DNA of 61,090 nt, counting the filler. It is 8 parts of 8 records of this genome, joined end to end, with 100 filler letters (N's around TTAATTAATTAA, not from the genome) between each part and the next. Parts side by side here need not be neighbours in the genome. Positions count along the whole stretch, not along the records: positions 11,464 to 18,398 come from SRR15195285_38; 7 more parts are not named here. One strand, written 5' to 3'. Under the pieces are notes generated by a model. The model saw only the letters and a list, made by a program, of their open reading frames with translations. It was not told the DNA's origin and did not search any database. Made by a program: the position numbers and the translations under genes. Of this stretch, positions 11,757 through 49,361 are shown piece by piece (positions within the stretch are counted from its first letter, which is position 1; each line of letters opens with the position of its first letter).

Positions 11757-14700
11757 TTACTCATATTCGAAAATGCCAGACTTGTCAATCGCGTGAAAAA
11801 CGATTGGACTGATGCCAGAGATCAGTGCTGCTGCAAAACCCTTGATCGTGTTTTGCCCTAAGACTATAAACCACAACTTTGTCCGCCGATCCTCAGCTCC
11901 CCAGTGCCCCCGCGAGCCAACACGATACTCGTCCCGCACAGTCTGGGCCAAGGTTTCCAGCAGTTTGTAGCACTGTGCTGTCATCGCCTCGCTTTTCGTC
12001 TGCGATGCCTCGCGCAGACGGATATCCGCCCAGATTTGTGACGGTTCTGGCAATAGAGCCTCCACATTGGCCACGCCAAGTGAAGGATCACGATATAACG
12101 GGCGTCCGGTGGGTTCTTCAGATGTAGCGGTCGAGCCATCGAGGTCAGCTGCAGAAGCATGTAGCCCATCATCTGTGGCCTTTGCGTTTATGGCATCAAG
12201 TAGCCGCAAGTCGCTGGAGTCATATATTGGATGCTGCCGTCGAGCCTGGTTGTCCTCGGCTTGCATTAGCAGCTCCACAATGGCATTTTTCGCAGTAGTC
12301 GGATCGTCGTTGCCTACTGGGTCTTCGACATCACCTGCTGCAGTAAGCGCAGCGTTGCTCACACCCAGCTTGCGGGCGCATTCCTCGAGCTCAGTCCTAG
12401 ACATCCGCTCGAGCGCGGGCCGCCTACCTTCATGCTCCATCACAACGGCCTCGTGTCTCGTTTCTAGAAGCTTCTTCAGAGCAGTTTTTGGAGATGCCGT
12501 GTCGTCAACAGCCTTGCGGATGTCTTCGTCACACACGCCTGTGAGCCTGCAGCGTTCGCGCAGCTGAGATACCTTGAGTCGATCTAATCCTTGGATCGAT
12601 TGCAGGTGGAGACCGCCCAATTCGCCGTAATGGTGTTCATGGAGCATGCATTTTTTCCGCGAGGTGGCCGCCCCCTCACTTCCATCGTGCGCAAATGAGC
12701 CGTGAAAAAAGTCGTGCTCGACGAGGTAGTGTGTGCTTTTCTCCAATAGCTCGGCCTGCTTTACCCGCAGGACGTGTGAGAAGCCGATTTGAGTGATGTC
12801 ATTGATGCTTTTGCCAGTAAATAAGATCGCGCTCAGGCCAACCGCAAGCATGCTCGTGGTGCTAAAGACAAACACCGCTTCGATGTCGACGACCTCATCT
12901 CCCCGACGCACCCAGGCTTTGACTGCTTGATAGATGCAAGTCGCAACCCACGCTGAGAGCAGGTACACCACAGACACCTGCAAACGTCGGCTAGACCGCT
13001 GCTCGTAGGTCTGCAAGAAGATTCTAAGCTTGTTCCACGCTACAATATTCGCAGTGGTGTCTAAATCAAACGTTGGCAACAGCCCGTAGTGTTCGTGTTT
13101 CTGGATTACCGCAGCTTCGCCAGCTATCGTCTTACGGTAGGTATGTTTCATCGTGCTCCATGGTGTCAGTTGAATGAAGTATAGCATCCGATGGTACTGT
13201 TCAAAGTAGTCTTCGTAACACCGGTACAGTCGGGAAGCAAGGGCATACGTTAGAACCGCGTTGGCCCAGTACGTTAGTAGATGTACTGTCGGTGTACCTC
13301 CACATGCCGCACACCCCAGGTCTGAACTAATCCCCAAAAACCTAATGTAGGACAGAGGGTTCATCAAGTGCAGCTGGCACGAGCTGGTGGTCGGCTTCGC
13401 CACTCTGTATTTACAGGACGGCCCCGCGGCGCTGCACCACCCCCAAATTGTTGGTGTTGCACCTGGTTTCACCAGTTTGTTGGCTGCACTCTGCAAAGGA
13501 AAAACAAGGTCTGCATCTTTCCAGTCTGCTTCATCTAGCCACTGCTGGTTGAAGCAGATCTTAACGTCCGATTGAAATGGTGCACAGTCGTAGTCTGCAC
13601 CACCGCGCCCGAAGTTTCCCCTGAGGCACACAGGATGGGCATCGGCGCCGTGTTCCCAAGCGATTCTACGATCTTTCGCATCACTATCTTCAATTTCAAA
13701 ACCTGACATGCACTGGCACGGACGACAGTCCACGTCACACTCCAAATGATCGGATCGGACATCGAGGTCTGACACCTGCGCGTCCGTACACTGTGGATCA
13801 TTCCCACCGTGATCATCATCGGTTCCACAGTACCCATGCTTCGAACAGAAATCGCGGCAAATTCCGTGCTGAAGTCGGGTATGGTTGTGCGCATCAGACC
13901 GGCAACCAATGCCGGTAGTCTCATTGAAAGCTGCACATCGTTGCCAAAGACGAGTTGTATCCCTGCAATCTCCGTAAAACCCACAGCGTGTACCAGCGCC
14001 ATCTGTTGTGTTCAGTAAAGCCTGACTGCACAGCTGCCTGTCGTCACGGCTGCATCTGGGAGAAGATGTGTTCTGCGGCACGACGAGCTGGCCCACAGCA
14101 CGTTCGGCATCTACCCATCCAAGAAATTCGGATGGACAGCATTCATATCCCAACGTGTCTCCAGGCGGTACCCGGAACACCTGCGTGCTTGTGCGTCCAG
14201 CGAGTTTGCTTGCAGCAGCTTGGTTGTTGTTGCAGCAGCAGTGCCCCTGCACATCGAGGATAGGGGCGCAGATGTCATCCTTTCCTGTGTCAGAGCGCGA
14301 TGCTTGATGACATTCTGCCGTTGAATTGAACAGGCACTGAATTCCAGGAAGGCCGAGAAACAGGAACGCCATTGCGAGCAGTGTATAGATGGAGAGGAAG
14401 ACTTTGGTGGTCCGGTGGTGTCCTCCAGTTTCATCCGAGACTCTGCTCGGTCTGCTTAGCACGAAAGCTACGATTACTGCCCCAATTCCAAGGTACACGG
14501 CCAACGAGGCAATGAGCGCCGGTATTGTAAATATAAGTGTGTAAATGTAAGGTATCGCTGCATGGCATAACGATATGTACCACAGTGTTCTCCACCACTG
14601 CTCTCGCCTTCTGAATTGCTGCGCCTTGCTAAGATAGAGAATCATCCTGGCGACTCGATCAGCTGAAATCGAGGACCCACCACCGATTTGACATCTATGC

Positions 14701-17700
14701 GACGTCGCCTGGGCCGTCTCTTGCTGCAAGGCCAAGATGTGGTGCGCGAGGTGGGTGGCGGTTGGGTCCGCTTCGTCAAGCAAGCCTAGCCAGGTTTCAA
14801 CGACAGACTGCAGCAATCCGATACTGACGCCTATTGCCACGCCAGCCCAAGGCGCCATTTCTCCTTCTCGCAGAGTTCCTAGTGCCACACCAAGCATCGC
14901 GCCGTATTTCAGGCACTTCCAGTACGTTCTTAGAGAGACGAAGCCTTTCAGGCACGACGGCACCCTCTCAAAACACTTAAAGGTCGATTGGCCACTGTGG
15001 GCAAATACCAGCGTACCGTTGAAATGCTCGAAGAATGGACCTGACGTGATATCTGCAGCGCCGTGAATGTGCTGACGTATCGCCGCTGCCAACTCGTCCT
15101 CTTCCTTCTCATACGCATAGTCCAGCAACTCGTCATTCGTGAGATGTTCGATCTTGCTTTGAATGGCTCGGTTATCAAAATCGCCTTGCTGCAAGGCTTG
15201 GACAGTGGCGCGGGGCCTAGATTTTGCCATCTCAGCTTCGAATTCGGCCTGTGCTTCCGGAGACGACACCAAATGTTTCAAGCAGATCTGCTTGATCTGT
15301 TTCTGTGCTTCAATTACACTCCAGTTTATCTGCAGCGCATTCTGTAGCTTGCTCTTTGCCTCAGATATCTCATCACTGCCCTCGGACTCCACAATGCGGC
15401 GCGCCATATCTGCACCGATTGTTTCGGCTTGAGAATCACTGTGGCTTGGTCCAATTTCACAGAGTGGCCTCAAAAGCGCTTTGAGCGCTTCCAAATCGTA
15501 CGTATGCTGGCCATCTTGCGGCTCGAACTTGACCGCCTTTGTGAGCTTGTCGACGAATTCTGACCGGAAATCGCTCTCTTGTTTCAGGTGTTGTCTGATC
15601 GTCTCAAATGGATACCTGGGTGTGTGAGTTGTGAGCCTGCCTTGGGTTGCGAGTTCCTCCGCTTGCGAGTTGAATGCGTTCTCTACACAGACAATCATCA
15701 ACCCCCGCACAAGTCTGCCGACTTTGTTCACATGCACCTTTTCTTGCGTCTTCCTGAGTGCATCGTTGTACTGGTCGACTAACGCGTCGATGTCTGACTT
15801 CTCAAATTTCTGATAATGAACATCGATGATCTCGGAGCACTGCAGCTCCCGAAATCGCCGAGTATAGCGCTGCGAATATTTCTCGGACTCGAAAGACAGC
15901 CGCCTGAGTTCTCGCACAACAATGTCGGCGAAAGTGTCGTTGAAAGCGTCTGCCCAACTGACATTTGCGACCCCTGTCAGCTTTGCCAGCACAAGTTTTG
16001 TTTTCTTGGTACTGTTCAGGATACTCTGCAGATTGGCATGATCAGAGGTGTCGAGCTCAACAACACAATGGCCCTCTGGTACTTTGAAGTACGGTTTTCC
16101 ATCGTCACTAGTCCTGATCCCCGGCCTGGGCACGTGATTTACAGGCTCCAGCTGTGGATCACGCTGTCGTCGAGACTCCCGGTCTATCACCAAATCTACG
16201 AGCTTTTGTCGTTTTTCTTCTTCAGTCTCACGGGCGATGTTTGCGAGCTCCTCACGTGAGACACCTGCGTCGGCTGCTCTGCGTTCCAGCATGCCCGTTT
16301 CCAGTTCGGAGAGCTGCGCACGAAGGATTTCGCGTTTGGTACCAGTGTCGGGAGGTGGGCAGACGCAGTTATTATCCGTGCACTTGTCTCCACAGCACTT
16401 TGGAATACCCTGGATTTCTAGTTTATTGCTCCCCGACCCTTGCAAGAAGCGACCACCCTTTAGTGCCGATATGTGATCCACCACATCTCCTGGCCTGCCG
16501 ACGACTGTTCCTACCCGACCAACAAACTCGGCAGGTAGAATCAGGCTGGGAGCACTGATTTCAACACGTTCGCCTTTCTTGACAAGTTGTAGAGATGTAT
16601 CTCCATCAAAACGAACGGCTCTAGCATTCTTGGATCGTGCTTGAGTCATGGACCGTCTTGCGTTTGATAACGCCACGTGGACCATCAGCGCACCTGGCCA
16701 CACTCCGAGAAATCCGACGACGAGCGAGATCACGGAAAACTCTCGCAGCCAATCAGTCAAACCATCTGGTGACCAGATCTTAGAATTTGAGAGAAGCCAA
16801 ACTAGGACCAGGAACATACCAATACCGGACAAGGCAGTTGAAACTGCCCGTCCGATCACCCGCGCAACTGCTTGGTGCCTTAGTTTCATATTCTCCGCGT
16901 CGCGCATACCAGCACCGGCCCTGTGCTCAAATGTGCTGGGCTCAGTATAGTACCCAGTAACAACCCAGGCACATATTCCGATACCGACTGACACCAAGCC
17001 CACGACCACAATGGGTGCCTTGGGTCGGTCATCAGAGTTCAATTTCGGACAGCCAAGAATGTAGTAATTGAGATCTATGACATACCAAAGGATCATCAGC
17101 ACCGAGACGACAATTGCGGACGTTCCCCCAACCACTAGGTACGTACTGTGTCGGTCTTTGGCGCGAGCTCGCTCTGTCTCCGACATCACAGGATCGTGGC
17201 CCATTATCTTGATCAATTTTACCCCAAAGGCAAGGATCCTATCGGTCTCCACGCTGTACTCGATGCGCATTCTTCTCGGGTAGCTAGTCTCTTCATGTGC
17301 GTGCACAAGAGCAAGCAGTAGAAAGGCAAACACCGGGAAGTACGTTACACTCAGCGGTGGGTCCACATACGCAGGGAGATCCTGGCCGCCAAACTCTACA
17401 GGCTGTGTGTTTGCAGGAAAGTTCGCCTCGAAAGGGTCCTTTCCGAAAATCAATTGTGACACTGCCCCCTGCTCTTGGCCAGACTTGTCGATGAGTTGCT
17501 TTAGCCGGTGATGAAAATCGGCACTGTGAATTAGAACTTCCCAGACCAGAAGGAAATAGTACATCCAGCCAAGGCACTCTGCACATCTGCGTACTGTGAC
17601 GAGTTTCTGCTTAGGACGCAGCGCTGGTTGCGCTGCCGCGTTGCCACTGCCCTGGTATCGTATCCGCACCCAGCGGTACACAAGTTCCATAAGGTATGCA

Positions 17701-18047
17701 GGAGGGATAGCCGCGCGGAAAACATGCGCAACGAAAGTCATCGTCGCTGCGCCCGTGGGAGGACACGTGGAGCAACCATCCTTACTGTCATCGTCGACGT
17801 ACTCTCGAGCCAGCTCTTGTGAGCGAGCCAGGAACGAAGAGCGTACGCTGCTTGCTGCTGACACGCGTTCACGAGTGAATGTTGTTCTCTGTGCCCACTG
17901 CTCGAAGTTGGATGCAGATCCGGGCTGGCGCGTGGGCTCGAGCTCCTCCAGCTCGGGCTCGGGCTCGGGCTCGGGCTCAACGTCGGTAATCGGGTCTGAG
18001 GGCTCCGGAGTCGCAGGCCGCGTAACATCAAGGAGCGGTGTCTCCAT
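11757..18047 (-). CDS. 2096-aa multi-pass membrane protein with a PHTF-like (7TM ion channel superfamily) C-terminus and a Cys-rich loop carrying a hevein-like motif
   Basis: Single ORF with more than 12 hydrophobic segments. [20 protein letters not shown]...[39 protein letters not shown] resembles the PHTF segment AERTYKQRLLFAKLFGHLT...[48 protein letters not shown] lies at ~13820..13860. The N-terminus has a PEPEPE tract. Confidence 0.7.
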   Translation of the reverse strand: [2096 protein letters not shown]

Positions 18048-19768: not shown

Positions 19769-22700
19769 TCATGGCAGCAGCGTCACCGTTTCAATTTCGT
19801 TCGTGAGATCCTCCGCGGCTGTAGCCGAACCATCCGGCACGACATCTGTTCCAGCGGGGGCAGTTGGGGGCGACAGCAGCGGAGAGCTTTCCAGCGTGAT
19901 GCTTCTCACCGGGGTGGAACGGCCTGTGCCTCCAGCTGGCCTGGGCTCCATAGGGCGGCGCGGTGACATGACCTCGCTGTTGTCGTCGAGAACGGAGGCA
20001 TCGGCCCTGCTTTCCATCTCATCTGCACTGGTGGGATGCTGCTCGGGGTCCAACCCGGCCTCCATTAGCTCCGATTCATCTAGTTGCAGAGTGCTGCTGT
20101 TTTCTATCACGTCGTCCAGCTCCCGGTCGTACTTGGCTAAGAGATCCTCCACGCGCGATGCTTTCGTGCGCATCCCAGTCTTTTGCTCAATTAGCCGTTC
20201 TTGCACGCTTTCCGACAGCGCCGAACCATCCTGCAAGGCACCCAGTTTCTTCTTGGCCTTCTCAATTGCCTCCTCGTACATATCCATGATCGCATCGTAC
20301 GTAAGATTGTTCTCCAAAAGTTCGTCACTAAGATCGTGCGTCATAGGGTCCTCTAGACCTTGTGAAATCGGTGCACCTGAGGTGACCTGCTGCACGTCGA
20401 CCTTAAATGCCTCAACAAGCTTGTCAAATCTACTCATGGCTACGTTAAGCTTCACGTTGAGAATCTCGCGCTCTTCTTCATCGTCCACCTGCTGACGTTC
20501 GTACACATGCTTTTCCATGATGTGACTGTTCTTCATCGCATGGAACGCCTCGACGATGTTGTCAATGATTTCTGCCTGGGCCGCAGTCAGAAATTGCGTG
20601 AAGGTCGCAAGCTTGAGGCTGGCTTTTGCCAGCTGTCGTTGCTTCTTCGCCAGCTTGCGGCTTGCCTTTGCGACGGCAATACCCGACGCAAACTTCTCTG
20701 CACCGCTCGAGGCTGGAGGACCCAGACTGATCATCGCCTCTCCCGCTGCCGATTTGTTGGTGCTGTTGCTGATGTGGGAGCGTTGCTGCAAAGCAAGCTT
20801 GAATGCACCCGCAGCCTTCGTTCTTGTTGTCACGCTTGTTGTCAGGCTCGCCCATCTGGACTCTTTGCCAAACGCTACATCCTGGTTGAGCACTTCAGCC
20901 CCTGGATCCATTGTCGTTTGCTGAATGCCTTCGGCTGCCCTTTCGATCTCATCTTTGTCTTTTGCCAATTGATCTTCTTCTGAAAGCCCCCCAAGCTTGA
21001 TCATATCAGGGGTATCTATGCTCAGTTCGTCCCCTGGCTTCTCATCTTTCTCTCTGTGCAGGCCGTGCCACCGACGTTTGGCGTGGCCAACGACTAACAC
21101 ACGGATCGGTTCCACGGCGACCAAGTGTATCGCCACGGACAATGCGCAGCCGTGCAACCACTGCATCGTAAATGCTGCGCTGAGCTGCACAATATGGACG
21201 GCGATGACCACCGCGCAGCACGCCCCGATTGCAAGGATCGAAAGGTACACGCCGACGATGATACGCCTCGAGTGGACCGCCGGATCGTCAAGCTGAGGCG
21301 AGTAGTCGGGAATCTCTCGCACAAACGTCAGCGCGTCCTGCATGTCTTGTACATATCTACCCTGGTCATCGATACTAGTCTTGCCGAGCCTTTTCAGCTC
21401 TCTCTGCGCTACTATTTTCAACTTCGGCAGTGGCATTGCGCGCAATTCTTTCTTTCGTTTCTGGATTCGCTTGTAGTCTTCGCGGTAACGTACAGATTTG
21501 CGGAGTAACAAGTCTATGATCGTCGCTTTTCGTTTGTCGTCCAATTTCTTCAGAGCTTGCCTCCGCATTTGCGGCGCAACAGGAATATGGGACCCAGATT
21601 CGGTTGTGTACCAGACTTTCCTTTTTGGTAATGCCGGCAAAGCATCTAGGTCGTGAGCATTCTGAACTGCAGCAGCCATATCTACTTGCTCAGCGCCATC
21701 AATCTGCAAGCTGCCAAGCTCAGTCGGCAGCCGCATTAGTCGCCTCGATGAACGTTTCGTAAACGCGCGCTTGCTTCCGACGGCTTTTACGTCCATTAAA
21801 GCCTTCTCACGCTCCCTTTTCAGCGCATCACTTTCAGCTTCACGAAGCAAGGTACCTTCTACCCGCAACATGTCGAGAAACGGACGATGGAGATGATCAA
21901 GGAGTTGATGCACGAGAAGCGAAAGTATTGCCACAATGAAAGTCGTCAGCATCACAGCATGTACCTCACTCGGGACGTGCTCGTCACAGAAGTCGGAACA
22001 ATTCTGGATGGCACCACGCGGGCCAACCCGTGATGATGCTCCCTCAAATGGACCGACGGCGCAGTGTTCACACCCATTTGCTGAGAAATAAGTTTTACAC
22101 TCACACTCCTGAATTTGCTGCTCTATTGTGACAGCACTGCAGTTGGTGGACAATCCATGTACATCTGGACGACCCTCACAGACATCGATTGTGGGAAAGA
22201 TAGGGTTTTTGTAAAACATTAGCCCCACTGCCATGGTGCACAAAATTGCAACCAATATGATGACGACACGCTGTGCGCGGCTGGTCGGGTCGCCTACCAG
22301 AGGAATGCACAACGCACCAATATTCCACTTTGTGCGCAGCATTATCTCAGTGTGAACATGTTCCTGAAACGCTACGGTGGAATCAAAGCCTTTCAATGCA
22401 AATATCGCATCTGCATAATCGCCTTGTTTAATTGGATCGCCCGTAGCTTGTTCTTTGACCAGTCTCCTGGTGCGTGTGGCGCTGAGCGCCAAGTACCTCC
22501 AAGCGCTGCCACTGCAGCAAAACAATAGGCAGGCCAGGATTGCACCTGTGACGCTGAGCCCGATCGTTCCCTGTTCCCAACTTTCGAGCCGAAACGTTTG
22601 TATGAGCGATGGCAATTCAGCGGCTTGCGGAGCTGCGCCTATCATGGCACCGAAGTCAGTTAGATGGTTGAAGCTGCACAGCATGAAATTCGGTGTCTTC

Positions 22701-25700
22701 TCGAGGATGATACCATCTTGCATCCATCGCCCAGAAACAGGATTCCAGTAACTGCACGCTACTTCAGGTGCAAGATCGCAAGTGAAGGTGGACGGTACGG
22801 AGTCCACAAGTGACGCATTCGAGGTGTTCGAGGTGTTCAAAGCGTTCAAATTCATCGATATAGCAGCAGCTTCAGCAGCAGCCTCGCGGACTTCTAGAGG
22901 TACCCACTGATTCTTCGAGATTTCGCAAGCGCTTTGGTTGTTGGCTGTTGCCACCGGTCTGCCATCCACATGTTGACACACCCCTGCCCGTGGGGTGGTC
23001 CAATGGTTACCGTTTTGACATTCCGCTTCGTCAGAAAGCAGGCGTTCAGGCACCGCGTTCCGACCGGACAGGGTCTGACATGTGTATTCAGGGCGATGCC
23101 ATTCATGCAACGTAGAGAGGCAGACTGTCCGAGGAACACATGCCGTACCACGTGGCGTGTACTCACACGTTCCTCCACCTGCAGAAAGTGCCGTTGCTTC
23201 GCACGAAACCCTGCGGTCGGAGGCATCGCGCCCAGAAAAATCTACGCCATTAATGGTTGTAGCAGCACACGCCGCTTTGTCTGCTTCGGAACTGCCACGC
23301 GGAGCGATGCAGCTATCAGCATGCTCGCACCGGTTGAAATTATCAAGGCCAAGCGACCCGCAATTGTCGGCGTGATGAGCGGCTCCTTTCTGTGCACAGT
23401 CAGTTGCATCCATTATGGGACCGTACCGGGGCCCAGGATCTTGTCCCATTCCAGACAAGACCAACTGACTGGATGTTTCCAGGCACACGAAGGCTGAAGG
23501 ATCAGGGTTGATAACCCATCGTTTGCCACCAGTGCAGTTCGTTTCATCAGTTGGAGGCGGCGCTGGGCTCTCGGTCAAAGGCGAACAAAGTTTGTCGATG
23601 GCTGGATACCAAGTGTGACCGGTTGTTAAGCAGTCTGTCTCATTTCGAGCCTGAACAGGTTCCATCATAGGTCCCAGGCAGTCTCGGGCGTGAGTACACT
23701 CTGAGCTGCACGACAAGTCACAAAACCCGGCGAGTGGGCAACCAATACAGAAGTGTTTGTCACAATTATACCGCCCCTTGTCAAGCAAATCAGCGCACGC
23801 GCCATCGTAATGTGCAACATCGTACGTATTGATGCACTTTGCGTTCCTACATGTGTCTGGCACTCGGTAATATTCAGTTGGGTGCAGGGATATGTTTACG
23901 ATGACCGGCTCGGGAAGATTTCTAAGAATGACCTCATTTCCGTCCAAGAACAAGCTGAAGCTCACTATCTGTGACCGTAGTGCAACTGTCTCGCCTACAC
24001 CCTCATCTGCCGGTTTGACGCCACCAAACGCGAACGGATTGAAACCATCAGACCATATGATTGCTTGAGAAACGAGCGAGTCATCTTGGCTTTGGGATAA
24101 AGTTCTGTTCATCCACTGCGATTCATTTAGGTGCGTGATGTCCATGGCTGGCATAGTCACTAGTCCGTTGGCTAGTTTTGTCCCATTACTTCCTGTTGTC
24201 CGAAACTTTTGAGTTTCCATCACGAACTTTGTCACGGCAAGGACTTCCGGAGGCTCCCCAGGTACCAATCGGGCAGCTACACCAGCACTCACTTTGTTCA
24301 GTACGCCCACCAGCCGTGGAACTCTAGCAGCCGATGGAAATACAGGCCCATGGTCCAAGGCTATGAAGATGTTGTCTGCAGCGGATGCAATGGAAACGGC
24401 AGTCTCTGCCTCAAGAGCAGTCGTCTGGGTTACCAACCCGAGCAAGCTGATTACGGAATCCATACACTTCAGTGATACTTGGTCTGTCACCGCTGTCACA
24501 ACTGCTGCACTGGAGGCAAAAACTGAGAGAGCACTTTGTCTCTCTGATGCGTTCAGGTCCTGTGTTGCCAACATACTGGTGAGCAAGTACTCAGACAGCT
24601 GCTGTCTAGCCTCTACTGCACCTGTGTGCTCAACAGTTCCATTTTGCATGTGGCTAGCATTCATGTTCAGCATGAAAGCCATGACTCCAACTGCCGATGC
24701 AACTTGTGTACCGTTCTCCAACTGTGACAACTTCGTTTCAAACTCTTCGACAAAAGAGCCAGCTGGATACCACGGGTGAACGTCGACAACAGTTGTGTGT
24801 GTCGTTTGCGCACCGTAAAGGTCAGTTACCAGAACAACGAGGTCCTGGAGGTAGGTATCGTTGACTCCACGGGTCCCCTCGGGAAGAAATGTAGCAAACG
24901 TAGCATTGTTGGTCGGTCTGTTCATCCACGACGTTGGCTGTGATGCATTTCGTGATAATCCAAAAGTGTATGTTAGTGGTTGATCATCATCGACCCATCC
25001 GGTTGCTCGCACAACAAACGTATCTTCGATTGCAACCCCCACCCGGGGTGTTACAGATACCTCGCCGCCTCCAGGGCAATCGTTCACACCAAATCGCAAG
25101 TCCACGGATCCAGCGGTGTCCTTTACATCTCCAGGCCGACGAATGGTTGCAGTCAGGCGCACTCGATACCACGAACGAGGTGTAAGCTGCCCTGCCGCCA
25201 CAATCAAGAACGGGTCAGAGACGCCTGTGTCCGGAGCCAGGAACGGCTGGTCCATCTGAAATCGACGATCGATTCGATCCTCGGAAGGACCGTCCCACGC
25301 TGCCCAGTCGAGCAACGCACCATCCTCCACGGACGCAGTCAATGCGAACCGAACCGAAGGATTGATCTTTGCCCTGTTTCCATCGATGGGCTGAATCTCT
25401 ACATATGGTGGGATCGTTCCGCTGCAGTCTAGATCTTGTGTAGCCCTAAAATATTCGACCGTGCATCTAACGCACTCTCCATGCCCTCGCAGCCACGTCC
25501 CATTTGATGCACGATACCCACCATCATTGACATAGCCGTCTACGCAGTAGCACTCCCGGACAGTGCCGACAGCCCTACGCCCTCGAGTCCAGGTGTTCGC
25601 CGGGCATGGTGCACAGACCACACTGCCCGGAGTGCCTGTGTAGGAATCTGAGACGCATTCTGAACAGGTATCATGAGGCGCGGCGATGGTCCCAATATAG

Positions 25701-28700
25701 CCTGTGTTGCAGTAGCACTGATCAACGCCAGTTGCCGCGTGGAGTGGTGACGCGTCCAATGGGCCTTTAGTATTCGCGTTGACTGGGCACTGCATGCAGG
25801 CGCCACTGCCGACCTCGTCTTTATATTTTCCGGGGGGGCAAGCCACACACGGACTAACTGACACGCTGGAATCATATCCAGCACTGACTGACCCAGAGTA
25901 TCCTCGGTTGCAAATGCAGGCACTGGATATGTTCACGCCACGTCTCGTGAGGGTACTGGAGTGGTCTGGGCATGCGTCGCATTCATCTGCTGAGCTCTGG
26001 GACTCTTTGTACTGGTCTGCTGGGCACTCTTCGCATTCGACCATCGCGTCGTTCAATTGGCTTTGCACCTGTTTGAATCCAGGATTGCATGCGCACACGG
26101 TTTTGTTGTCTGGCACTTTCGGCGGAACGTACCATGACTCCAGTGCCTGAGTACCCGGCCCGCACTCGATACAGTCCGCAGCGCCGTACTCGGCCTTGAA
26201 AAATCCAAAGCTGCACATTGAACATGTCGACGACGTTCCACTGATTTGGCCTGAATATCCAGGTTTGCACGAACAGTTGGTAATGTCCGTCGCGCCTATC
26301 ACGTGTATTTTCAGGTAGTCATCATGGTTCTGGGCGAACGGGACGTAGCCTGTGCCAGCGTTCGCCGGGCATGAAACACAAGGTGCATCACCAGCGGTGT
26401 CCTTATACATGCCAGGGCTGCACCTCATGCAGGCTTCTGACTCATTCAGGAACCGGACTTTTTCCAAGCCAGTCTCACATTTGCAATCATCCACACTCGT
26501 AGAGTAATAGGCTCCTGACGTCCCGGAGAAATCGGGGCATTCAATACAAGGCTGCAAAGGCTGCACAGAAACGAATGCTTTGTATGTGTTTGGGTCACAC
26601 GGAGCACACGTCCCATCGGAGGAGGAGACATCACCGAAAAATCCTGGGTTGCACTTGCAGTCGTCCACGCCATCGCTCTTGTCCTCGAGAGTAACTGAGT
26701 CAGCGGGACATCTATCGCACGGGTGCGGGCCAACGTTGCTCTTGTACCAGCCCGCTGCACAGGGAAAACATCGGGAGTTTGAACCAGTCAGTAAACCTGT
26801 GTACTGGACATACTGTGTTTCTCCGTCCGCTTCGATAGGGCTGCAAAACGCCGGGTACTCTGACCCAAGGGGTGTATGGCATGGAGCTGGCAACTCGCGC
26901 AACATCGTGGGGTCCATGGCATATTCGGTCTCTGACGGCCAGCTTCCTACAGAGATCACTTCACCGCCGAAGTAGCCTTGATTGCATCCGCAGTCTGACA
27001 TGGATCTCGCGTTGGAACTCGAATAGGAAGAATCTGGGCAGAGTAGGCAATCACCAGTGCCGTAAGAGGCCTTGTATTTGCCTTCTGGGCACGCCTCACA
27101 AATGACGGACCCGTTCACGAGCCCACCTACATATCCAGGGTCGCAGGAGCAATGTGTTCCATCTATCGCACCAATGGCGCCGCGTGTGCCAGAATTTGGT
27201 GGGCATCTAGTGCAGTCCATAGGCCCTGGCGTGGGCTTGTACGTGTCGGAGTCGCACTGCCTGCATGTGACACCTGGTATCGACATATTACCTTGATAGC
27301 CTATTGCACACAAACAGTCCCCTCGCATTGCGGAAGCGGTCGTGGCGGTGTCGGTGTCGGAAGACTCATCGAGACATGCCTCACAGTCGGCCCTGCCAAT
27401 GGTGCTCTTGAATGTACCCACCGCGCATGCTGTGCACATGGAATCGCTGGTTGTGAGCAATCCCTGCGGAAGCGGGCCTCGCGAGCTCTCTGCCGGGCTT
27501 CGCCCCCTAAATTCCTGGGTACCTTGCAACGCGCCCGGGCCGTAATACCCGGAATCACACAGGCATTGGCTGACGAGATAGGAAGCACTTTGTCCTCGGG
27601 TGTGAGAGTTGTCTGCACATCGATCGCACGCGCCGTCGCCGTAGACCTCCTTGTAGTGGTCGGGCGGACAGGCAGCACAGTTCCCGGCAACCCCATCCAT
27701 GTAATATCCAGGGGCGCACTGACAGCTGTGTATGGTAGCGGATCCGGTCTGTTTCGCCACCGCGTGACTACGGACTGGGAAATACACTCCATCGTCATTC
27801 GCAGACCCTATGATGCCTGCGCCCGAGGACCCGCCGTTCCTGGACGGGTTCAAATTCGCTGAAGAGCTTACAGTCTCGGAGTTTGCAGGGCACAGTGTAC
27901 AATTCTGACCTCCTAGCGCGGATTTGAAGTAGTCAATCGCGCATTGACTACAAACGATCGTGTGAATGCTCAGGTCGCCGGTCCAGCCCGCGTTGCACTT
28001 ACAGTCTCCACGAAGGCCTCGAGCATCGGAGGTGTCTGTTGTAGACTCCGCAGGGCAAGCTAGGCAACGATCTGAACCCGAGGTCTCTTTGTATTTGTCG
28101 GCCACGCACGCTATGCAGCCGGTTGTGGCGCTGCCTGTGTAGCCTGGGTCGCATAAGCACTGACTCACATCAGTTCTGTTTTCACGCCCGGCGGTGTTCG
28201 AATTGGCCGGACAAGGAGTGCAGCTAAAAGGCCCCTTAACATCCTTGTACATATCCGCTGGACAGGCTGTGCATATAGAATCGAGGTCCACTAGGGTACC
28301 TGTGTAACCTAGGTCACACAGACAGTCCGTCACTGACTCGGACGCAAGCTTACCGTTTGTGCCAGAGTGAGCTGTACAGGCCTCACAGCGCGCGCCACTG
28401 TTGCTGTCCTTGAACTCGTCTTCAAGACACATTCTACACTCTCCAATGCCACTTCGGATCTGTGGTGGCTTGCAAAACACTTGTACATGACACCCACCTG
28501 CAACGCTGCATCCGGCATCCGATGTCGTTCTCCCGTAAGCAACAGGGGATCCCATTCGCAGTGGATCTGATCCCGAATGCAGATCGGTAATGGTAGTGCC
28601 CGGTATATTACCCCAGGTGGAGAAGCCGCGCAAATTCGGTGGCTTTGATGGAATGTAGGCGCAGACATCTGGCGTTGGGCCCGTCAATTCACAGCTGCTC

Positions 28701-31700
28701 TGACTAATAGCGTCAACACAAAGCTTGCTCTGTTGGCCAGTGACACCAGTTCGCTTCCGCAGCTTGCTTGCTGGCATCCGACTAGGGGCCGCACCATCAT
28801 CCCACTTGACTGTGTACTCTGCACCAGAAGCATGCACCGCAGCTATCGAAGCGTTTTGCCATACTGCAGTCCATCTCCAACCCTCCACGAGGTTGCCTGC
28901 GACGAAAGACCCTGCGGGACTTCCTCGTGTATCCTGAATAGCCGTGCACCGAGCTCCACCCCAGGCGCACACACGGTTGCCGTCGGGCAAAACAGCTGAG
29001 CAGGCAGCTTCCGTAAGAGCGGCCTCACACACGACCTTGTGCCTTGCCACGCACGCCGCAGACATGTTGGTTTCTTGGGGTGTGATCAACTCGGTGTTGC
29101 CCATAAGTAGATCTGCCTGCGAAGCACAGCGCTTTAAAGGGTTGTGGCTGGTCTCGTTGTAGTCATTCACGTCACCAAACTCACAAAAGATTGGCGGCTG
29201 GTCACGCTGTGTCGAGCGACGTTGGCACACCACCCCTTCCGCAGGTTTGAACGTACCAACGTTAGTCGAGACGGCGGGGTAACCCATCCACTCTGCCATC
29301 AAGCCGTCAGAAACTGGGCTTGCAGTTGCTCGACGGATATCGGTGCTGCCCCGCCTCTTGACTCCCACGTTGATGACAGCCTGCTGTGCTGTCAGCGGGA
29401 ATGCCATGACCCGAAGCTCGCAAATCGTGATCGCGCGGCTTCCGGGTTGTGCCACGGTCACATACTTTCCACTGTGCCTGCAAGAAAGGGCATCAGGGAC
29501 AGCAAGGTTGTTGCCGAGCGTTCCGCACAAGACGCCGGTGCCGTAAGCCGCTGATGTGCTGACGTAGACTCGGGCACCGACAAGTTCAGCGTCGCAAAAC
29601 ACGTTGCAGTTTGTCCGGTGATATATCTCGATCGCATCAATGTCGTACACGGCTCCCAGATCGACCTGCCACCACTCGTTGGTACCAGCATTTGTGTGGC
29701 TGCAGCTGTCAGCTAGGAAGTCCGAGCTGTCAATTCCGTCAACGGCCCGGCTAGCAGCCCCACCAAGTGCGGTGGACGATTGCGATGCACTTTTGTCCAG
29801 CGCTACATTGACAAGCGCAGTGCTTCTGATTACCACCGCGTCTCTCAAATCAATCAGCTCTCCGCCGAACCTGCTTTCTGCAGCAACGAGCTGAGTCACC
29901 AGGCTGTCTATCGCCATACCACCAGAATTGGTGTACTCTGCCCAGGCGTCAGATTCTGTGAGTGTCCGGTCCCAGATCTGCACCCTCTGCATCATACCGA
30001 AAAAGTAATCAGAGTAGGCCCCGTTCGCATCAAGGCGTGCACCAATCACCAGCGGCTGCTGACTGTTCATTGCGCCGGTATCCAGACTCTGAAGGCTGTG
30101 AGAACCTGCAATTAGCCCGTCGTGAAATGCTACCATTCCCCCATCTGCCCTGATGGTAAACAGGATGTGGCTCCACCCATGGACGAGACCGTCCTGAGTT
30201 GCCGCGCTAGTGCCAACGAAAAGCGTCGAGGAACTGCAAGCGGCACTGTGCAGCACAGCAAAGCGTTTTTCGTCGCTGACACCACCGCCCCACGAAACCA
30301 GAGATCTCAAAGGCAAGTCTCCTTCAGTACAATGATCTGGTCTGAACCATACTGAGACGGTGCGCATACTGGAGCCAGTGGGAACTCGTGGTCGGACGGC
30401 ACTGATGCTTTCGGAGCCATCAAACATTAACGCGGGCTGAGCAAGACCTGTCGGGACCTCGCAAGTATGTACCGCCAGCCCTGACCACAGGTTCGCATAA
30501 CCCAGCACGGCAAATGCACAGGATGGTACGCACGAACCATCGCACTCAGCCATACCCACTACACCGCAAACTGGGTGGGGTTCGTTGTACCGTGCCCAGC
30601 AGCTCTCACCGAATATTGTCGCAGCCACAGCCTCCGGGCGTCTCGACTGCACTAGGTCAGCGCATTCACCTGCGGTGCCAACTACGCCAATCTGTTCGTC
30701 CAGTCTCGCCCCACCACGGCATGTGAAGCTGAAACCAAATCCACTTTGCGCGGTATGGCCGTTGGACTCAAACTGGATGAGCACGTCTGGCGTACTGCCA
30801 GAGCGAATCTCTGCCTCGTTCAGTTCTCCGTGTAGCACTTCGCCCAGAACGCTTGCTAAATTTGACGGCCCGTCGAACACTCGGACATAATCACCATCTG
30901 CCTGCGTCGATACAGAATTGATGCTAACGACGGGTTGACCAACGGCACAGCTGAGACGCCACTGACAGTCTAACCCATGTCCATAATTGCCACCGTGCGG
31001 TGGAAACTGCACTTCGCCATGATTGACAAGCGCGGCGGTTCCGGTATTGGCAGTCAAACACGGGTGCGGCGAAAGACAAGGTGTATCAACGACAGCATCA
31101 GCACAACACCGAACCCCTAGATTCTGTGAGACGTCGGTCTGACATATGCGACTTCCATCACCATTGCCCTGCATAGACACAGCACCGCCAGTGCATGGAG
31201 TGGATGTCCAGACTTGCTGCAGATCGAAGCAACCGGTTCCTGTCGCTTCATCAGCAACCAGCTCGTCCGCAGTGCAAAGCCGTGCGCCTTGGGCGTGACA
31301 GATAGCAGTAGCGTGCCCAATACCCTCTACAACCGATGAATCGGCACCAAAGCAGGCTGGAGGGTCGATATCGGTCTCGCCATTGTGCGTAAGCCTGCTC
31401 GCGGCGCAGATGGAGTCGCTCCCAAATCCAGGTGGCCATCCTAGAGCATCGCACGACTCCGCTGACGTACACGAACCGCTGTCGGTGGTGGCTGCTCCTG
31501 GCGCAAACGTACACGCATCGACCCGGCGACCGCTTGGAAGATTGTCATCAAGACCCGGACCATAGAGATGGCAGTGACCATCTGCAACTCTGTGATCATA
31601 GGCCAAACAGTCCCCATTAGCGTCACAAGCTGCCTCACAATCTGCTGCTCCGACCGCATTCAAGGCCCGACCATTCACCCGGTCGTCCTCGGTAGTCCCG

Positions 31701-33598: not shown

Positions 33599-34283
33599 CC
33601 CTGCACCAGCCCAACAGCCCTCCACACCCTCCATAGCGTCCAGGGTACGCTTCATCAGGCAGGCCGTCTGGCCTCCACAGCGTCCAGGGTACGCTTCATC
33701 AGTCGGCCTGCACGGCAACAACAGCAGCTGGCAGGATGCCAGCTGCCGCCATCATCATCGCGTCAATAGCATGGGACGCCCGACGGCGGACAGCCACACG
33801 ATCACACTACCGCATCCTACAGCCGACCTCCCGCCCTGGGGACCCAGCCTGCCTTGCCGCCTGCTGCCTGGGTGCGCGGTGAGGAGCACGGTGGCCGACC
33901 CAGGTACTCTTCCTTTACCGTGTTCTTGTCGCGCAGAGTTACCACATATTCGCATATTCGTACTTATTCGTATTAGTTTGCGAGGCATTCATACCATTGA
34001 CGGGTCCATGAATACGAGATTTGGCCGTGTGGCTCATGCAGCTGCATGAGCACGTGGACCCGTGCCGCCAGGGACTCCCGACTGCGACTCGCAAATTTGT
34101 ACGAACATGCCGGAGGGCAGCGGCCGTGTCGTTGGCGCAAATTTGTCGGCGGCGGGATTGGAGACCGGGTCTCCTGGGTTGGTATAATCCATCTTGAAAG
34201 CCGCGAGGCGACCACAAAAGCAGCTGCAGCCGGCCGGCAGGCGGCGCCGGGCTGGCGTGCTGAAACGCACGAAAAACGGCCAG

Positions 34284-35306: not shown

Positions 35307-38300
35307 ATGAGGCGCAAACGTGGCGATGGCGCGGAAACCCGCGATTTTGACATTTTTGAGACGGATAATCCGATGGCGGAAGGGGCAGGGGCAGGCAGCG
35401 ACGAGGATGAGGTGCGCACATACGACATTCCGCCAAGTGGGTCATCATGTTTCTTACCCGTGCGAATTGTTGAGCGCAGCCCCCCGCCGCTCCTGGAGAT
35501 GACACATCCCCGGTCAGTGGAGACCCAGGGGTGTTTGAGGTAGAAGACACAGATACCGGGCGCGGGGACGGGAGAGAACTTTCTCCGCAGGCCATTGGAT
35601 TGGGTGGGACGTGTTTGCTGGTTCTTCCGTGCCCTGTCTTCTTGAGCTACTACACGTTGATGGTCAACTCGGAAGTTTCAAATCTGGTCATCATCATCGC
35701 AGCCTGCATATACGTGTACATGCTGGGTGTAACTCTTCTGGGTATCTTCAGGTGCGTCCTTTCAAGGCGGTGTATCTTCCTGCCCTCTTGTGCTGATCAC
35801 ATGCGCGCGTCGTTTACTAGTGCTTGGGAGTTTCAAAATGGGTCGACAGACTCAATGCAGGTCTTGATGTTCTTGATCACCCTCGCGATTTGTCAACAAG
35901 GCAGCTTCCTCGGCGTGATCACCTCATCTGAGTGTTCGGGAGGAGAAGAAGAAACTTGCCTATACAGCTCGGTTGTAGACGAAACACTGCGCGACTTCGC
36001 TAGCAGTGCACAGGACCAATGCCGAGTGGGAGTTGCCACTGATGGCTATTACGTACCTTGGAGTAGCCTGTGTCCGTGTCTACAGGATCCAAGGCTAGAT
36101 GGCGAAGAGTCCGCTTCATGGGAAGTTGGCGAAGAGTCCGCTTCATGGGCTGGGGCTCCAAGCAACGCGACTTCTTCTGAACCAGACCTGGTGTGCATTG
36201 CAGATGTCCTGAAAAGCGCGAACAACCCACCCAGTGACTTACTTTTGGGGGCTTGGGTGGCGCTCTGGCTGGAAGTTTTAGTCTTCTCCGTCACGTTTGC
36301 AATTTTGTTCACGACTACGGCGCAAGCGCAAAAGAAAGCGGCCGATCAAAGTGGTGGAGCCCAAGTGGCAACGTTGCGCGGCACTTTGGTCGGTGGAACG
36401 GGTCTTCGTTCAGGACACTCCGGGATACCACACGCGCAGAGACACACCAACTATAGCCAACGCTATGTCGTCCTGTCTGTGTCCAACCCAGCTGTACACA
36501 AGCTGTCTCACCGCGCACAGCAGATCAAGACGCCAGAGTCAGAAGACGACCCAAATCCAACATGGAACCACGAGTTCACCGGCCTGGCACTGTACGCTGA
36601 TTCGAACAAACTAGATATTCAGGTATACGATCAGATTGAAGGCGAGCCTGTGCTGATCGGCACTGCGATTACGGCGGATAGTGGTGGAAGCACTGACGGG
36701 ATTTTCATGGACCTGGACGAAGGCAAGCTGACTAGCCCAGAGTACAAAATGAACGGTGACATTGACAAGATGGTCAGTATCCAGCTGTATCACAAAAAGA
36801 CTGAGGATCAGCCAAACCGACCTGCGGGGACGCTTCAGCTGATTCTGAACATGTATCCCGAGAACACAATGTTGCTGAGCACGATAACATCTGTGATCGA
36901 GCAGTCCTTAAAATACGAGGCTGTCATCTTCGCAATGGTGTTGCTTTCAATGCTTGATCTGGCTCTGTGGAGTCCAGCAGCTGCTCTTTCTCCGACGATG
37001 CTGGCCGGACTGCACATTATTGAGTTGTTCATCGTTTTGGAAATGTGTTTTGAACTTGTTATTGAGATCGAAGCTGCGCGCCGGCGAGGAGAGACACAGC
37101 TATGGAGGAAGCCTGTCTTCATATTTGGGGTCTACAATCTTGCTGCAAACATGGTCTGGCTCGTCCTTGATAAAACTCAGGGAAACCTGTGGGTGCAAAA
37201 GTTCGTAGCTGTTGGTAGAGTCACCCGACTGGCAAGGGGTATAGAGCGTTTTCGCATTCTTCCCGACGTAGATGTGATCGAAGATGCGCTGGGAGCTGCT
37301 TCACAACTGTTTGCAATGGTGCTTGTCCTCATGTTTATGTTGACGTTCATGTTCGCAATTATTGGAGTCAGCAGCTTTGGTGGGGCATTACAGTTCGAAT
37401 GTCTCCTAGACGGAGTTCAAGAGTGTGACCAAGCTCAGAATGAGGTCGCTAGTCGACTTGGTGTAGAGTGCCCTCTACGCTGCCCAATGACTCTTGCATG
37501 TGCCGTTGATGGATACACTTGGCCGTGGGAAGAGGCGATGGGACTGTTCGAGGCACCCGACAAGCGGTGCGCGCCTGTTCGAGAGCCAATCCCCGTTGGC
37601 TATGACTCGTTCGGGATCCGAGATTTCGACAACGTTTGGCGCGCAACGGTCACCATTCTGGTTCAAGCAACAGGAGATGGAGGCATGCACACGATACCGT
37701 TGGCACTAAGCAATGCTGGCGCACGGTTCACAGGTAGAGGGTGGTTAGTGTCATTCATCATCTCAGTTCTTCTGAACCTGGTATGCCTCAACTTGTTTTT
37801 ATCCGTAGTCTGCTCTGCGTACAGCCGTTCTGCGGCGAAAGCCACAATGGCTCGTGCTGAAGAAAAAGCAGCAAAGGAAGCAACTATAAAGGAAAGCATA
37901 GCTACCGAGACGGCCGAGGAACGCAAGACCCGCATTGCCATAGAGGAGGAGGTGCGTGAGAAAGGAAAACCGGTCGCTCAGAGATCGGAAGAAAAAGATT
38001 GGGTGGCAGACGGAAGTGCATGGATGCCTCCACCCATTCGAATGACTTTGAAGAATATTGTACTTTCTGATTTATTCGAGACCGTGGCCTCCCTGATAAT
38101 CTTGGCAAACACAGTGACGATGTTAATGGCCCACGATGGGATGAGCGAGCAGATGGAATCAATATTGCAGGGGTTTGAAATGTTCTTCTTGTTTTGCTAC
38201 GTTGTGGAATCCATAATGATTTTTGTGGCACAGGGGTCGCAGCTCTTCTTTGAGTCGTCAGAAAACAGATTTGACCTGTTTGTCATTCTTACTTCAATCA

Positions 38301-44300: not shown

Positions 44301-45448
44301 GGGTCGCAAAGGGCTGCCCACGTGACGCTAAGCCGCGTGACGTCAAACTTCCTATCAATCTTCTCGCCACCTCTGACAGCAAGCGTGCAGAGCGGGATCT
44401 CAGCCTGGTCGACCTGCCATTTTCAAGAGTTGGACAACTACTACACGGGCTATATCTCCGCCGCGTAATGGGTCGGCGCAAGCCAACACTTCGACACGTG
44501 GCCTACACCGTTTTCCAGCTTGAAACACATTGTTTTGGTCCAGATAATCAAGACACTGCTCGAAAGCGAGGCATTCGAGGGGACGCAGATAAAGAAGGAG
44601 TATATCTGAGTGACCTGCGTGGTCTACGTTTCAATGCCACGTTGGAACGACTTATAATGACATACTATGGCAAGCGTCGCTGCTTGTCTTACCGCGACCA
44701 GGTGGAGGAATACGAGGTCGAAGCGCGCAGTATTGCATCTCAGATCATCCGTACCATGGTGTCACGTTGGGTGTTCAAGACGTGCGCTCGACTGGGCAAG
44801 ACTGTGGATGGACAGCCGTGGCCTTATCATCCATGTTGGCGCAACAACCCCGAGCTGTACGCTATCGCAGCAGACGCTGCCTGTGCTCAGCGAATGTACA
44901 CTCTCCGCAAACTGTGGTCCGAAGTGCAGCGCCAGTCTAAGCCAGAGTCTGGACTAGAGGAGAATGATCAGGTATCTGAGGCACTAGCGAGTGACAATGA
45001 TCCTATACCAGGGACTGGTGCTGACCCCTCGTTAGTTGAAAGTCTTCCTGTGGAGAACGGGGATGTGCCAGTAGACGACCTGGTTCACGAGACCCCAGAG
45101 ACGAGGAGGGAGCGTATCGGTGCTGCGTTTGCGCGCATCCGGGAGAGACATGATCTCACGGACGGCCCCGAAGACGAGCTTGAGGCTAGGCAGCTATTTG
45201 ATGTGCTGCCTCTGCTTAATGGTGTTGTGCTCACTCCTGACGACTTCAAGCTCATCGTCAACGCACTGGGGTGGTCGATGGACACAATTGTGTCGGTGGA
45301 CGAGCTCAGTAGAGCTTTCGAGACACTTGAAGTCCCTGCAGTTGACTTACTGCTTCACGACGACGATGAGAATCCTGACCTGGATAACTTTGACAACTTT
45401 GGTCTCGACCCACAGGAGGCGCTCCGAGCACTCGTGAACAAGCTGTAG
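35307..45448 (+). CDS. Four-domain voltage-gated cation channel alpha subunit (Nav/Cav superfamily), 3357 aa, with extra N-terminal TM helices and C2, PH, SH3b-like and EF-hand-like domains; exons 35307..35411 and 35480..45448
   Basis: Four 6TM repeats with S4 segments (GRVTRLARGIERFR, FRAVRLLRALQLVR, VRALRVTAVAR, LRCIRVARI), pore helices (DFDNVW, NFESF, TFDDS, NFNNF) and S6 ends (LNLFLSVV, MNILVATVLRNF). Phase-0 intron 35412..35479 (GTGCGC..GCAG) links an upstream ATG exon in frame. Confidence 0.93.
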
Positions 45449-49261: not shown

Positions 49262-49361
49262 NNNNNNNNNNNNNNNNNNNNNNNNNNNNNNNNNNNNNNN
49301 NNNNNTTAATTAATTAANNNNNNNNNNNNNNNNNNNNNNNNNNNNNNNNNNNNNNNNNNNN
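49262..49361. other. Artificial contig spacer
   Basis: N44-TTAATTAATTAA-N44. Confidence 0.99.

Follow-up and report, generated by a model that had tools for sequence, protein, structure and literature searches.

A giant protist membrane protein with a predicted insect receptor-like seven-helix core and a cysteine-rich insert

Does a giant intronless protist gene encode a chemoreceptor channel, and is the cysteine-rich loop of its product the part that would bind a sugar? This question is raised by positions 11757..18047 of a eukaryotic, intron-poor window, by which we mean the whole stretch of 61,090 nucleotides analysed here (eight parts joined end to end, with filler between them). An initial annotation, made from the letters alone, had recognised at 11780..14350 a protein resembling PHTF and the seven-transmembrane ion channels (7TMICs), and had taken a hevein-like motif in its cysteine-rich loop as a hint at a channel responsive to N-acetylglucosamine (GlcNAc) or chitin. 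The 7TMICs are the smell and taste receptors of insects and have been seen as an ancient superfamily since 2023. Outside insects we know of almost no 7TMIC with a known function, human PHTF1 and PHTF2 included.

Judging by its sequence, the protein is a giant member of an unnamed protist family that lacks a named Pfam match. Its core probably has the seven-helix fold of the insect odorant receptor (OR) and gustatory receptor (GR) channels. Its layout is PHTF-like, in that transmembrane helices 2 and 3 (TM2-TM3) are separated by a long loop on the predicted cytosolic side, as the model of a relative suggests.

The 2096-residue protein and its family

The gene is a single uninterrupted, intronless open reading frame (ORF) of 2096 amino acids (aa) on the minus strand, with the ATG at 18047 and the stop included in 11757..18047. 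The interval flagged initially lies inside this gene and covers only aa 1233-2089, the C-terminal 41% of the product; the ORF is 2.4 times as long. N-terminal of the interval are TM1, TM2, four further hydrophobic helices, a 605-aa soluble stretch, a glycine-zipper hairpin, TM3 and two more helices. In the hydropathy scan, six hydrophobic helices at aa 155-462 are followed by the 605-aa soluble stretch, a glycine-zipper-like segment at about 1046-1088 and three helices at aa 1155-1235. Next comes the Cys-rich stretch, then helices 1590-1612, 1689-1711 and 1722-1744, another soluble stretch of 315 aa and the final helix 2060-2084, which ends 12 residues before the C-terminus. In total the protein has about 15 hydrophobic helices, about eight of them beyond the seven-helix core. 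Its features are given below; P0018 is a short relative, and A1 is an alignment of 82 family sequences with P0018 first, which was used to fold P0018.

11757..18047, minus strand: whole gene, 2096-aa ORF
17523..17585, minus strand: TM1 of the 7TMIC-type core, aa 155-175 (hydropathy peak; A1 alignment with P0018 helix 147-178)
17301..17363, minus strand: TM2, aa 229-249, then the family motif HAHEETSYPRR (hydropathy; BLASTP against P0018 208-232, E 0.006)
16668..17141, minus strand: four extra hydrophobic helices in predicted intracellular loop 1, aa 303-460 (hydropathy peaks 2.0-2.5)
14853..16667, minus strand: soluble part of predicted intracellular loop 1, aa 461-1065, without a Pfam family
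14784..14912, minus strand: glycine-zipper-like hairpin, aa 1046-1088 (hydropathy scan)
14529..14585, minus strand: TM3, aa 1155-1173, motif HAAIPYIY (hydropathy; BLASTP against P0018 402-446, E 0.054)
14343..14522, minus strand: two extra helices, x and y, aa 1176-1235, joined by a basic linker of 14 aa (hydropathy 2.57 and 2.14; three Lys or Arg in the linker)
13281..14342, minus strand: Cys-rich insert in predicted extracellular loop 2, aa 1236-1589 (30 Cys, 5 sequons; conserved ends, variable middle)
13821..13859, minus strand: hevein-like motif CRDFCSKHGYCGT, aa 1397-1409 (Chitin_bind_1 15.2/16.1 bits, under the 27.8 cut-off)
12711..13295, minus strand: conserved core TM4-intracellular loop 2-TM5-TM6, aa 1585-1779 (41% identity to P0018 466-658, E 3e-48)
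aa 1590-1612, 1689-1711 and 1722-1744, minus strand: hydrophobic cores of TM4, TM5 and TM6 (hydropathy scan)
11982..12815, minus strand: predicted intracellular loop 3, aa 1745-2022, with two SAP/HeH-like (helix-extended-helix) repeats at about aa 1812-1858 and 1876-1928
11796..11981, minus strand: split TM7, made up of TM7a (CYKLLETLAQTVRDEY), the break HWGAEDRRTKL, TM7b (aa 2060-2084) and a 12-aa tail (BLASTP against P0018)

The soluble stretch aa 461-1065 contains the conserved block RRFRELQC and the CCGDKCTDNNCVC cluster, and a conserved MILYLSKAQQ helix precedes TM3. Visual comparison shows segments resembling the four extra helices (aa 303-460) in P0002 and P0012, both long relatives, and the P0012 stretch equivalent to the glycine-zipper segment has a sub-threshold match to "Glycine zipper 2TM" (19.4 bits, cut-off 24.2). 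Searched against Pfam, the whole 2096-aa protein matched nothing at E<=1, and neither its N-terminal nor its C-terminal part did so at E<=10.

A word-indexed search with aa 1100-1800 found three long relatives. When 1.84 billion representatives were searched exhaustively by HMMER with aa 1040-2096, the family came to 97 proteins at E<=0.001, of which 58 reach E<=1e-10 and 33 E<=1e-30; the window protein itself is absent from the searched collection. The relatives come from metagenomes, run assemblies and EukProt records, and two are labelled "Picozoa sp COSAG02" and "COSAG06". Conservation among the 97 is widest at aa ~1579-1790 and aa ~2000-2095. None has its best-matching stretch in the middle of the Cys-rich loop, which is common only to P0002, P0003 and P0012, and the short full-length members P0018 (823 aa), P0016 and P0013 are devoid of this loop.

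The seven-helix core and its relation to PHTF

The model of P0018 has a mean predicted local distance difference test score (pLDDT) of 69.7 and a predicted template modelling score (pTM) of 0.69, with most of the residue blocks 400-650 above 90. Insect ORs and GRs were the only structures it matched above background, and the similarity of its seven-helix core to solved Or, Orco and Gr structures (8z9z, 8z9a, 7lic, 8v02, 8v3d, 8vc1, 8jm9 and 8jme) lies well above background, with 5-10% sequence identity. A Foldseek comparison of the kind proposed along with the initial annotation was run on this model against the PDB and gave five rows with a probability of at least 0.5, all of them insect GRs: 8ze0_A (0.87), 8jm9_A (0.72), 8x84_A (0.60), 8jme_A and 8vc2_A (both 0.54). 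The structural alignments with ORs and GRs start at P0018 helix 147-178, the equivalent of TM1 in the window protein. The long helices 465-507, 552-589 and 601-647 fit TM4-TM6 reaching into the cytosol, and the last helix is split (734-760, break, 784-814) in the manner of TM7a/TM7b, a correspondence at the level of secondary structure.

The window protein (P0001) can be mapped onto P0018 by colinear BLASTP matches: 232-256 on 208-232 for TM2 (E 0.006), 1127-1171 on 402-446 for TM3 (E 0.054), 1585-1779 on 466-658 for TM4-TM6 (E 3e-48, 41% identity) and 2023-2084 on 744-803 for TM7a/b (E 2e-13), the last falling on the model helices 734-760 and 784-814. On this mapping, the Cys-rich stretch is an insertion into the TM3-TM4 loop, which in P0018 has about 20 residues. 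Both the glycine-zipper segment and the four helices at aa 303-460 fall within the TM2-TM3 loop; this loop measures about 170 aa in the P0018 model and, with the extra helices counted, about 900 aa in the window protein.

Passages of the preprint by Himmel, Moi and Benton (2023, bioRxiv 10.1101/2023.08.30.555482) divide the 7TMICs of eukaryotes into two groups, Class-A (Or/Gr/DUF3537-like) and Class-B (PHTF-like), and name a long TM2-TM3 loop as the defining feature of Class-B. PHTF-like 7TMICs of unicellular eukaryotes were already published in 2023. The family described here has a long TM2-TM3 loop and would therefore be PHTF-like.

Several observations weigh against a reading of the protein as a PHTF-like 7TMIC with a sensing role. 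No Foldseek match reached E<=0.001, and the first row by E-value was MsbA. The evidence for the fold comes from the relative P0018 and not from the window protein itself, and the P0018 model has a pLDDT of only about 70 over TM1-TM2. The Pfam family PF12129 (Phtf-FEM1B_bdg), the N-terminal domain of PHTF proteins, was not matched by the whole protein (E<=1), its pieces (E<=10) or 17 relatives (E<=0.1). The curated PHTF sequences of PMC9998090 (Benton and Himmel 2023), a file of 2.28 million characters in which motifs crossing line breaks could escape, contain none of five family motifs (AWNK, GLLPTF, EDRRTK, PWSTM and YEDY); PHTFs from Phytophthora, Saprolegnia, Aphanomyces, Guillardia and Capsaspora are among them and are well conserved. 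PHTF1 itself is described in passages of PMC9998090 as located predominantly at the endoplasmic reticulum (ER) and without a known activity.

On sequence criteria, then, the family is not canonical PHTF and does not belong to it in the strict sense. Of the PHTF/7TMIC assignment made initially, the fold and the long TM2-TM3 loop stand, whereas membership in PHTF proper does not. Three family blocks (before TM5, after TM6 and in the turn before TM7b) follow PHTF1 sequences by eye only, and a profile search with A1 in a collection of 5.8 billion proteins gave, among the 8000 candidates to which it was limited, five family members and no PHTF. PHTF1 has about 760 aa, compared with 2096 aa and about eight extra hydrophobic helices in the window protein, which unlike PHTF also carries a 354-aa Cys-rich insert in predicted extracellular loop 2.

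The family differs from its other possible kin as well. Insect ORs and GRs have neither the long TM2-TM3 loop nor the extra helices nor an ectodomain, all of which are present or predicted here; a tetramer, a pore and ligand gating would be carried over to the present family by analogy. Plant DUF3537 proteins (Class-A) appeared as a cluster at rank 29 (score 0.82) in a list of language-model look-alikes for aa 1571-2096. The same list was headed by unnamed clusters at 0.87-0.89 and held Tmp39 at 0.85, and all of these scores are below the 0.9 line and serve as leads only. Pfam DUF3537 was not matched by the whole protein (E<=1) or its pieces (E<=10), and by the account of Class-A in passages of bioRxiv 10.1101/2023.08.30.555482, a long TM2-TM3 loop like that of the window family is missing from DUF3537 proteins.

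The likeness to ORs and GRs could also be one shared by helical bundles in general, in which case this would be an unrelated family of multi-pass membrane proteins. The E-values and the leading position of MsbA would suit such a reading; the restriction of above-background matches to insect ORs and GRs would not, and we consider it highly improbable. A two-copy complex prediction with P0018 residues 400-823, in which the alignment was not used, scored 0.00 (mark 0.32) and gives no indication on oligomerisation in either direction.

The cysteine-rich insert and its hevein-like motif

The loop itself was correctly described in the initial annotation: a Cys-rich segment with N-glycosylation sequons lies between hydrophobic helices (aa 1213-1235 and 1590-1612) and is directly followed by C-terminal helices, which we identify as the conserved TM4-TM7. 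It spans aa 1236-1589 (13281..14342, minus strand; 354 aa) and contains 30 Cys (8.5%), compared with 28 Cys in the other 1742 aa, and five N-x-S/T sequons at aa 1241, 1326, 1346, 1375 and 1388.

In a 19-sequence alignment of the insert region (A3), both ends of the insert are conserved. The N-terminal end has the pattern D-x-C-x-x-I-L-D-T-Q-G-x-C-C-C, with Cys kept at positions 1260 (11/11 sequences), 1270 (11/13) and 1271 (14/14). The C-terminal end reads C-F-x-Q-x-W-L-D-E ... T-I-x-x-W-C ... C-x-Y-x-V ... C ... G-C-x-A-C-G-G, with Cys 1498, 1538, 1579 and 1582 each kept in 14/14 and Cys 1557 in 15/16. The middle (aa ~1305-1490) varies in length and content. Among 21 sequences in which both anchors were caught, the distance between the TM3 and TM4 motifs ranges from 18 aa in the fragment P0011 and 45 aa in short full-length members to 468 aa, with 0 to 30 Cys in between; these distances include the membrane parts of both helices, and, as the patterns missed other members, the values are examples and not a census. 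P0028 (15 Cys) and P0030 (9 Cys) have a Cys-rich insert between the TM5 and TM6 regions instead. An AlphaFold2 model of the loop alone, built from A3, was too poor for a fold comparison (mean pLDDT 39.2, pTM 0.20).

The long relatives P0002, P0003, P0012 and P0004 also have dense Cys clusters before TM1, in their N-terminal 120-330 aa (e.g., C-C-D-Q-D-F-C-C-C and C-x3-C runs), so the Cys-rich segments of the family are not confined to outward-facing loops. The window protein lacks these clusters.

The insert probably lies outside the cytosol. The 7TMIC orientation, with the N-terminus in and the C-terminus out, would make the TM3-TM4 loop extracellular loop 2. In this arrangement TM3 would leave the cytosol, helix x (1176-1198) would re-enter it and helix y (1213-1235) would exit again, the insert would lie outside and TM4 would re-enter. 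The extra pair x/y thus keeps the parity, and the Cys-rich segment should face the outside or the lumen; the topology is kept upstream because the four loop-1 helices are even in number and the glycine-zipper segment is read as two helices. Charges agree with this path: no Lys or Arg was counted beside the insert, whereas the N-terminus and the flanks of TM2-a, d-e, TM4-TM5 and TM6-TM7 hold five to seven. Overall, predicted outer flanks hold 0-3 Lys and Arg versus 5-7 at predicted inner flanks, with three in the 14-aa x-y linker. Helix parity and the positive-inside rule therefore suggest an extracytosolic insert.

Against this stands its dependence on assumed helix counts, as parity requires the glycine-zipper segment to be a hairpin or not to span the membrane. 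The predicted cytosolic stretch aa 461-1065 also holds 13 Cys and five sequons. As both occur there, the density of Cys or sequons alone is no marker of location. Three observations led us to reject a cytosolic zinc-binding loop: the helix parity, flanks in which no Lys or Arg was counted, and the paired Cys conserved where the loop begins and ends.

The motif on which the chitin hypothesis was built, CRDFCSKHGYCGT, is indeed present and begins at aa 1397 (window position 13859, minus strand), but the hidden Markov model of the domain does not bear out its identity as hevein. With a cut-off of 27.8 bits, Chitin_bind_1 (PF00187) reached 15.2 bits (E 0.027) for the loop and 16.1 bits (E 0.013) for a piece of 100 aa; of its 38 profile positions, only 16/17-35 are matched. 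The profile found nothing on the whole protein at E<=1 and nothing in 17 relatives at E<=0.1, P0002, P0003 and P0012 included. Since these E-values are per protein and the window has about 20 long ORFs, one such match is near expectation and the motif is not beyond chance.

The region reads F-C-S-K-H-G-Y-C-G-T-D-D-D-H-G, with a single Cys before Ser. It resembles hevein/CBM18 in the local core C-S-x-x-G-[YF]-C-G-x-[DG] and in its Cys-rich, probably extracytosolic setting. Compared with what we take to be the hevein framework, it has neither the CC doublet (C-C-S) nor the aromatic-Cys pair [FYW]-C, and of the presumed three sugar-stacking aromatics it keeps one (Tyr), the other two positions being His. 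At the same place P0002, P0003 and P0012 keep F-C-x-x-W-C-x(2,4)-[FY]-C-G-D-G-x-x-Y. The core is thus found in 3/7 complete loops of relatives and is absent from P0004, P0009, P0031 and P0033. A PDB sequence search with the loop alone gave 0 matches at E<=10; with a four-sequence profile (A4) and the same limit, no hevein or CBM18 chain was found and three unrelated matches were (two chains of DMAP1, E 0.17; TraT, E 0.44).

A functional hevein/CBM18 module, with GlcNAc or chitin oligomers as its ligands and a 7TMIC channel gated by it, would be consistent with the alignment of C-S-K-H-G-Y-C-G-T-D-D with the profile core, with the related motif of three relatives and with an outward-facing loop on a core sharing the fold of sugar-gated GR channels. 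Given a score of about half the cut-off over half the profile, the missing Cys and aromatic residues, the lack of a hevein chain among the PDB matches and the position of the motif in the variable middle, the chance that such a module operates here is extremely small. The sequence comparisons support a weak local likeness, which is not evidence for chitin binding, and the proposed GlcNAc- or chitin-responsive channel is left without support.

Possible role, further family features and neighbouring genes

The insert would form a disulfide-bonded and probably glycosylated ectodomain that covers the bundle of helices at its outer mouth. Passages of PMC12635824 describe GRs as tetrameric channels with a ligand pocket lined by S2-S6. 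As the insect S2-S6 pocket opens to that side, the insert would be well placed for binding a ligand or a surface and for signalling to the core. By analogy with ORs and GRs, the core may form a cation channel and the insert would most likely be a sensing or contact domain coupled to it, while the large cytosolic loops with SAP/HeH-like repeats may dock partners.

The same architecture could belong to an ER or endomembrane scaffold or transporter that shares the PHTF-like fold but is no surface channel; the insert would then be lumenal and serve folding, quality control or protein contacts. The ER location of PHTF1 agrees with this, passages of PMC12635824 leave it open whether PHTF proteins serve as chemoreceptors, and the large cytosolic loops with their repeats would suit a scaffold. 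On the other side, every 7TMIC of known function described in passages of PMC9998090 and PMC12635824 is a ligand-gated channel, and the repeated gain of Cys-rich inserts in predicted outward loops of different subgroups fits environmental sensing better. Neither point is decisive, and we regard an endomembrane role as rather unlikely.

If the predicted channel is retained, a bolder proposal can be made. These proteins would be the first channels of the 7TMIC fold with dedicated extracellular ligand-binding domains, their subgroups having independently grafted Cys-rich ectodomains onto extracellular loop 2 or 3, above the small-ligand site of the insect receptors, with possible gating by macromolecular or surface-bound cues (prey, mates, cell-wall glycans). 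We offer this as speculation that is unlikely to hold. In the titles and passages of the literature searched we found no description of a 7TMIC with a Cys-rich ectodomain or a ~15-helix architecture, although preprint supplements could still list the family; the main text of bioRxiv 10.1101/2023.08.30.555482 nowhere uses the term "extracellular loop".

Large Cys-rich outward inserts at the loops roofing the ligand-pocket side would offer a handle on what PHTF-like proteins sense. Such an ectodomain could be expressed alone for ligand screening, and short and long forms could be compared in recordings. Members with about 15 helices may escape screens that select for a topology of seven.

The helix-extended-helix motif of about 45 aa occurs in three copies on the minus strand, within aa 1812-1928 (~12270..12614) and at aa 585-628 (16164..16293). 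Its consensus is L-x2-[LM]-x3-[EQ]-L-x2-[RC]-[AC]-x3-G-V-x7-A-x-D ... K-x-A-[LI]-[IV]-x-L, and it is also present in the relatives P0016, P0008 and P0086. Rho_N (13.2 bits) and SAP (9.2 bits) matched the repeats below threshold, and nothing else did. Acidic (E-P)n runs lie near the N-termini or in loops of many members (17950..18047, minus strand, in the window; also P0002, P0004, P0013 and P0018) and yield spurious sub-threshold matches to Trypan_PARP. The most divergent subgroup (P0061, P0065, P0075, P0085, P0087, P0092 and P0100) carries a Cys-rich stretch of its own ahead of TM4 and, after TM6, a segment that looks ubiquitin-like; it includes the 2156-aa P0109, from the cluster of P0087.

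The neighbouring genes in the window are very long single ORFs, EF-hand proteins among them. Adjoining the studied gene, 19769..33721 (minus strand) is an ORF of 4650 aa with many Ephrin_rec_like repeats (285.8 bits), REJ, F5/8 type C or NedA-like galactose-binding, Laminin_G_3 and fibrinogen-C pieces; in the PDB it is matched best by the fucolectin FBP32 (3cqo, E 3.8e-24), and its appearance is that of a giant adhesion or lectin receptor of the PKD-REJ-like kind. In the 3305-aa ORF at 35531..45448 (plus strand), Ion_trans matches four stretches (312.6 bits) and a C2 domain lies at aa 2733-2813, a domain composition that identifies the product as a four-domain cation channel of the voltage-gated type with a C-terminal C2. 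An 887-aa ORF at 49310..51973 (minus strand) joins an integrin-beta VWA domain with an EGF domain as well as Kelch repeats, a combination unusual for a protist.

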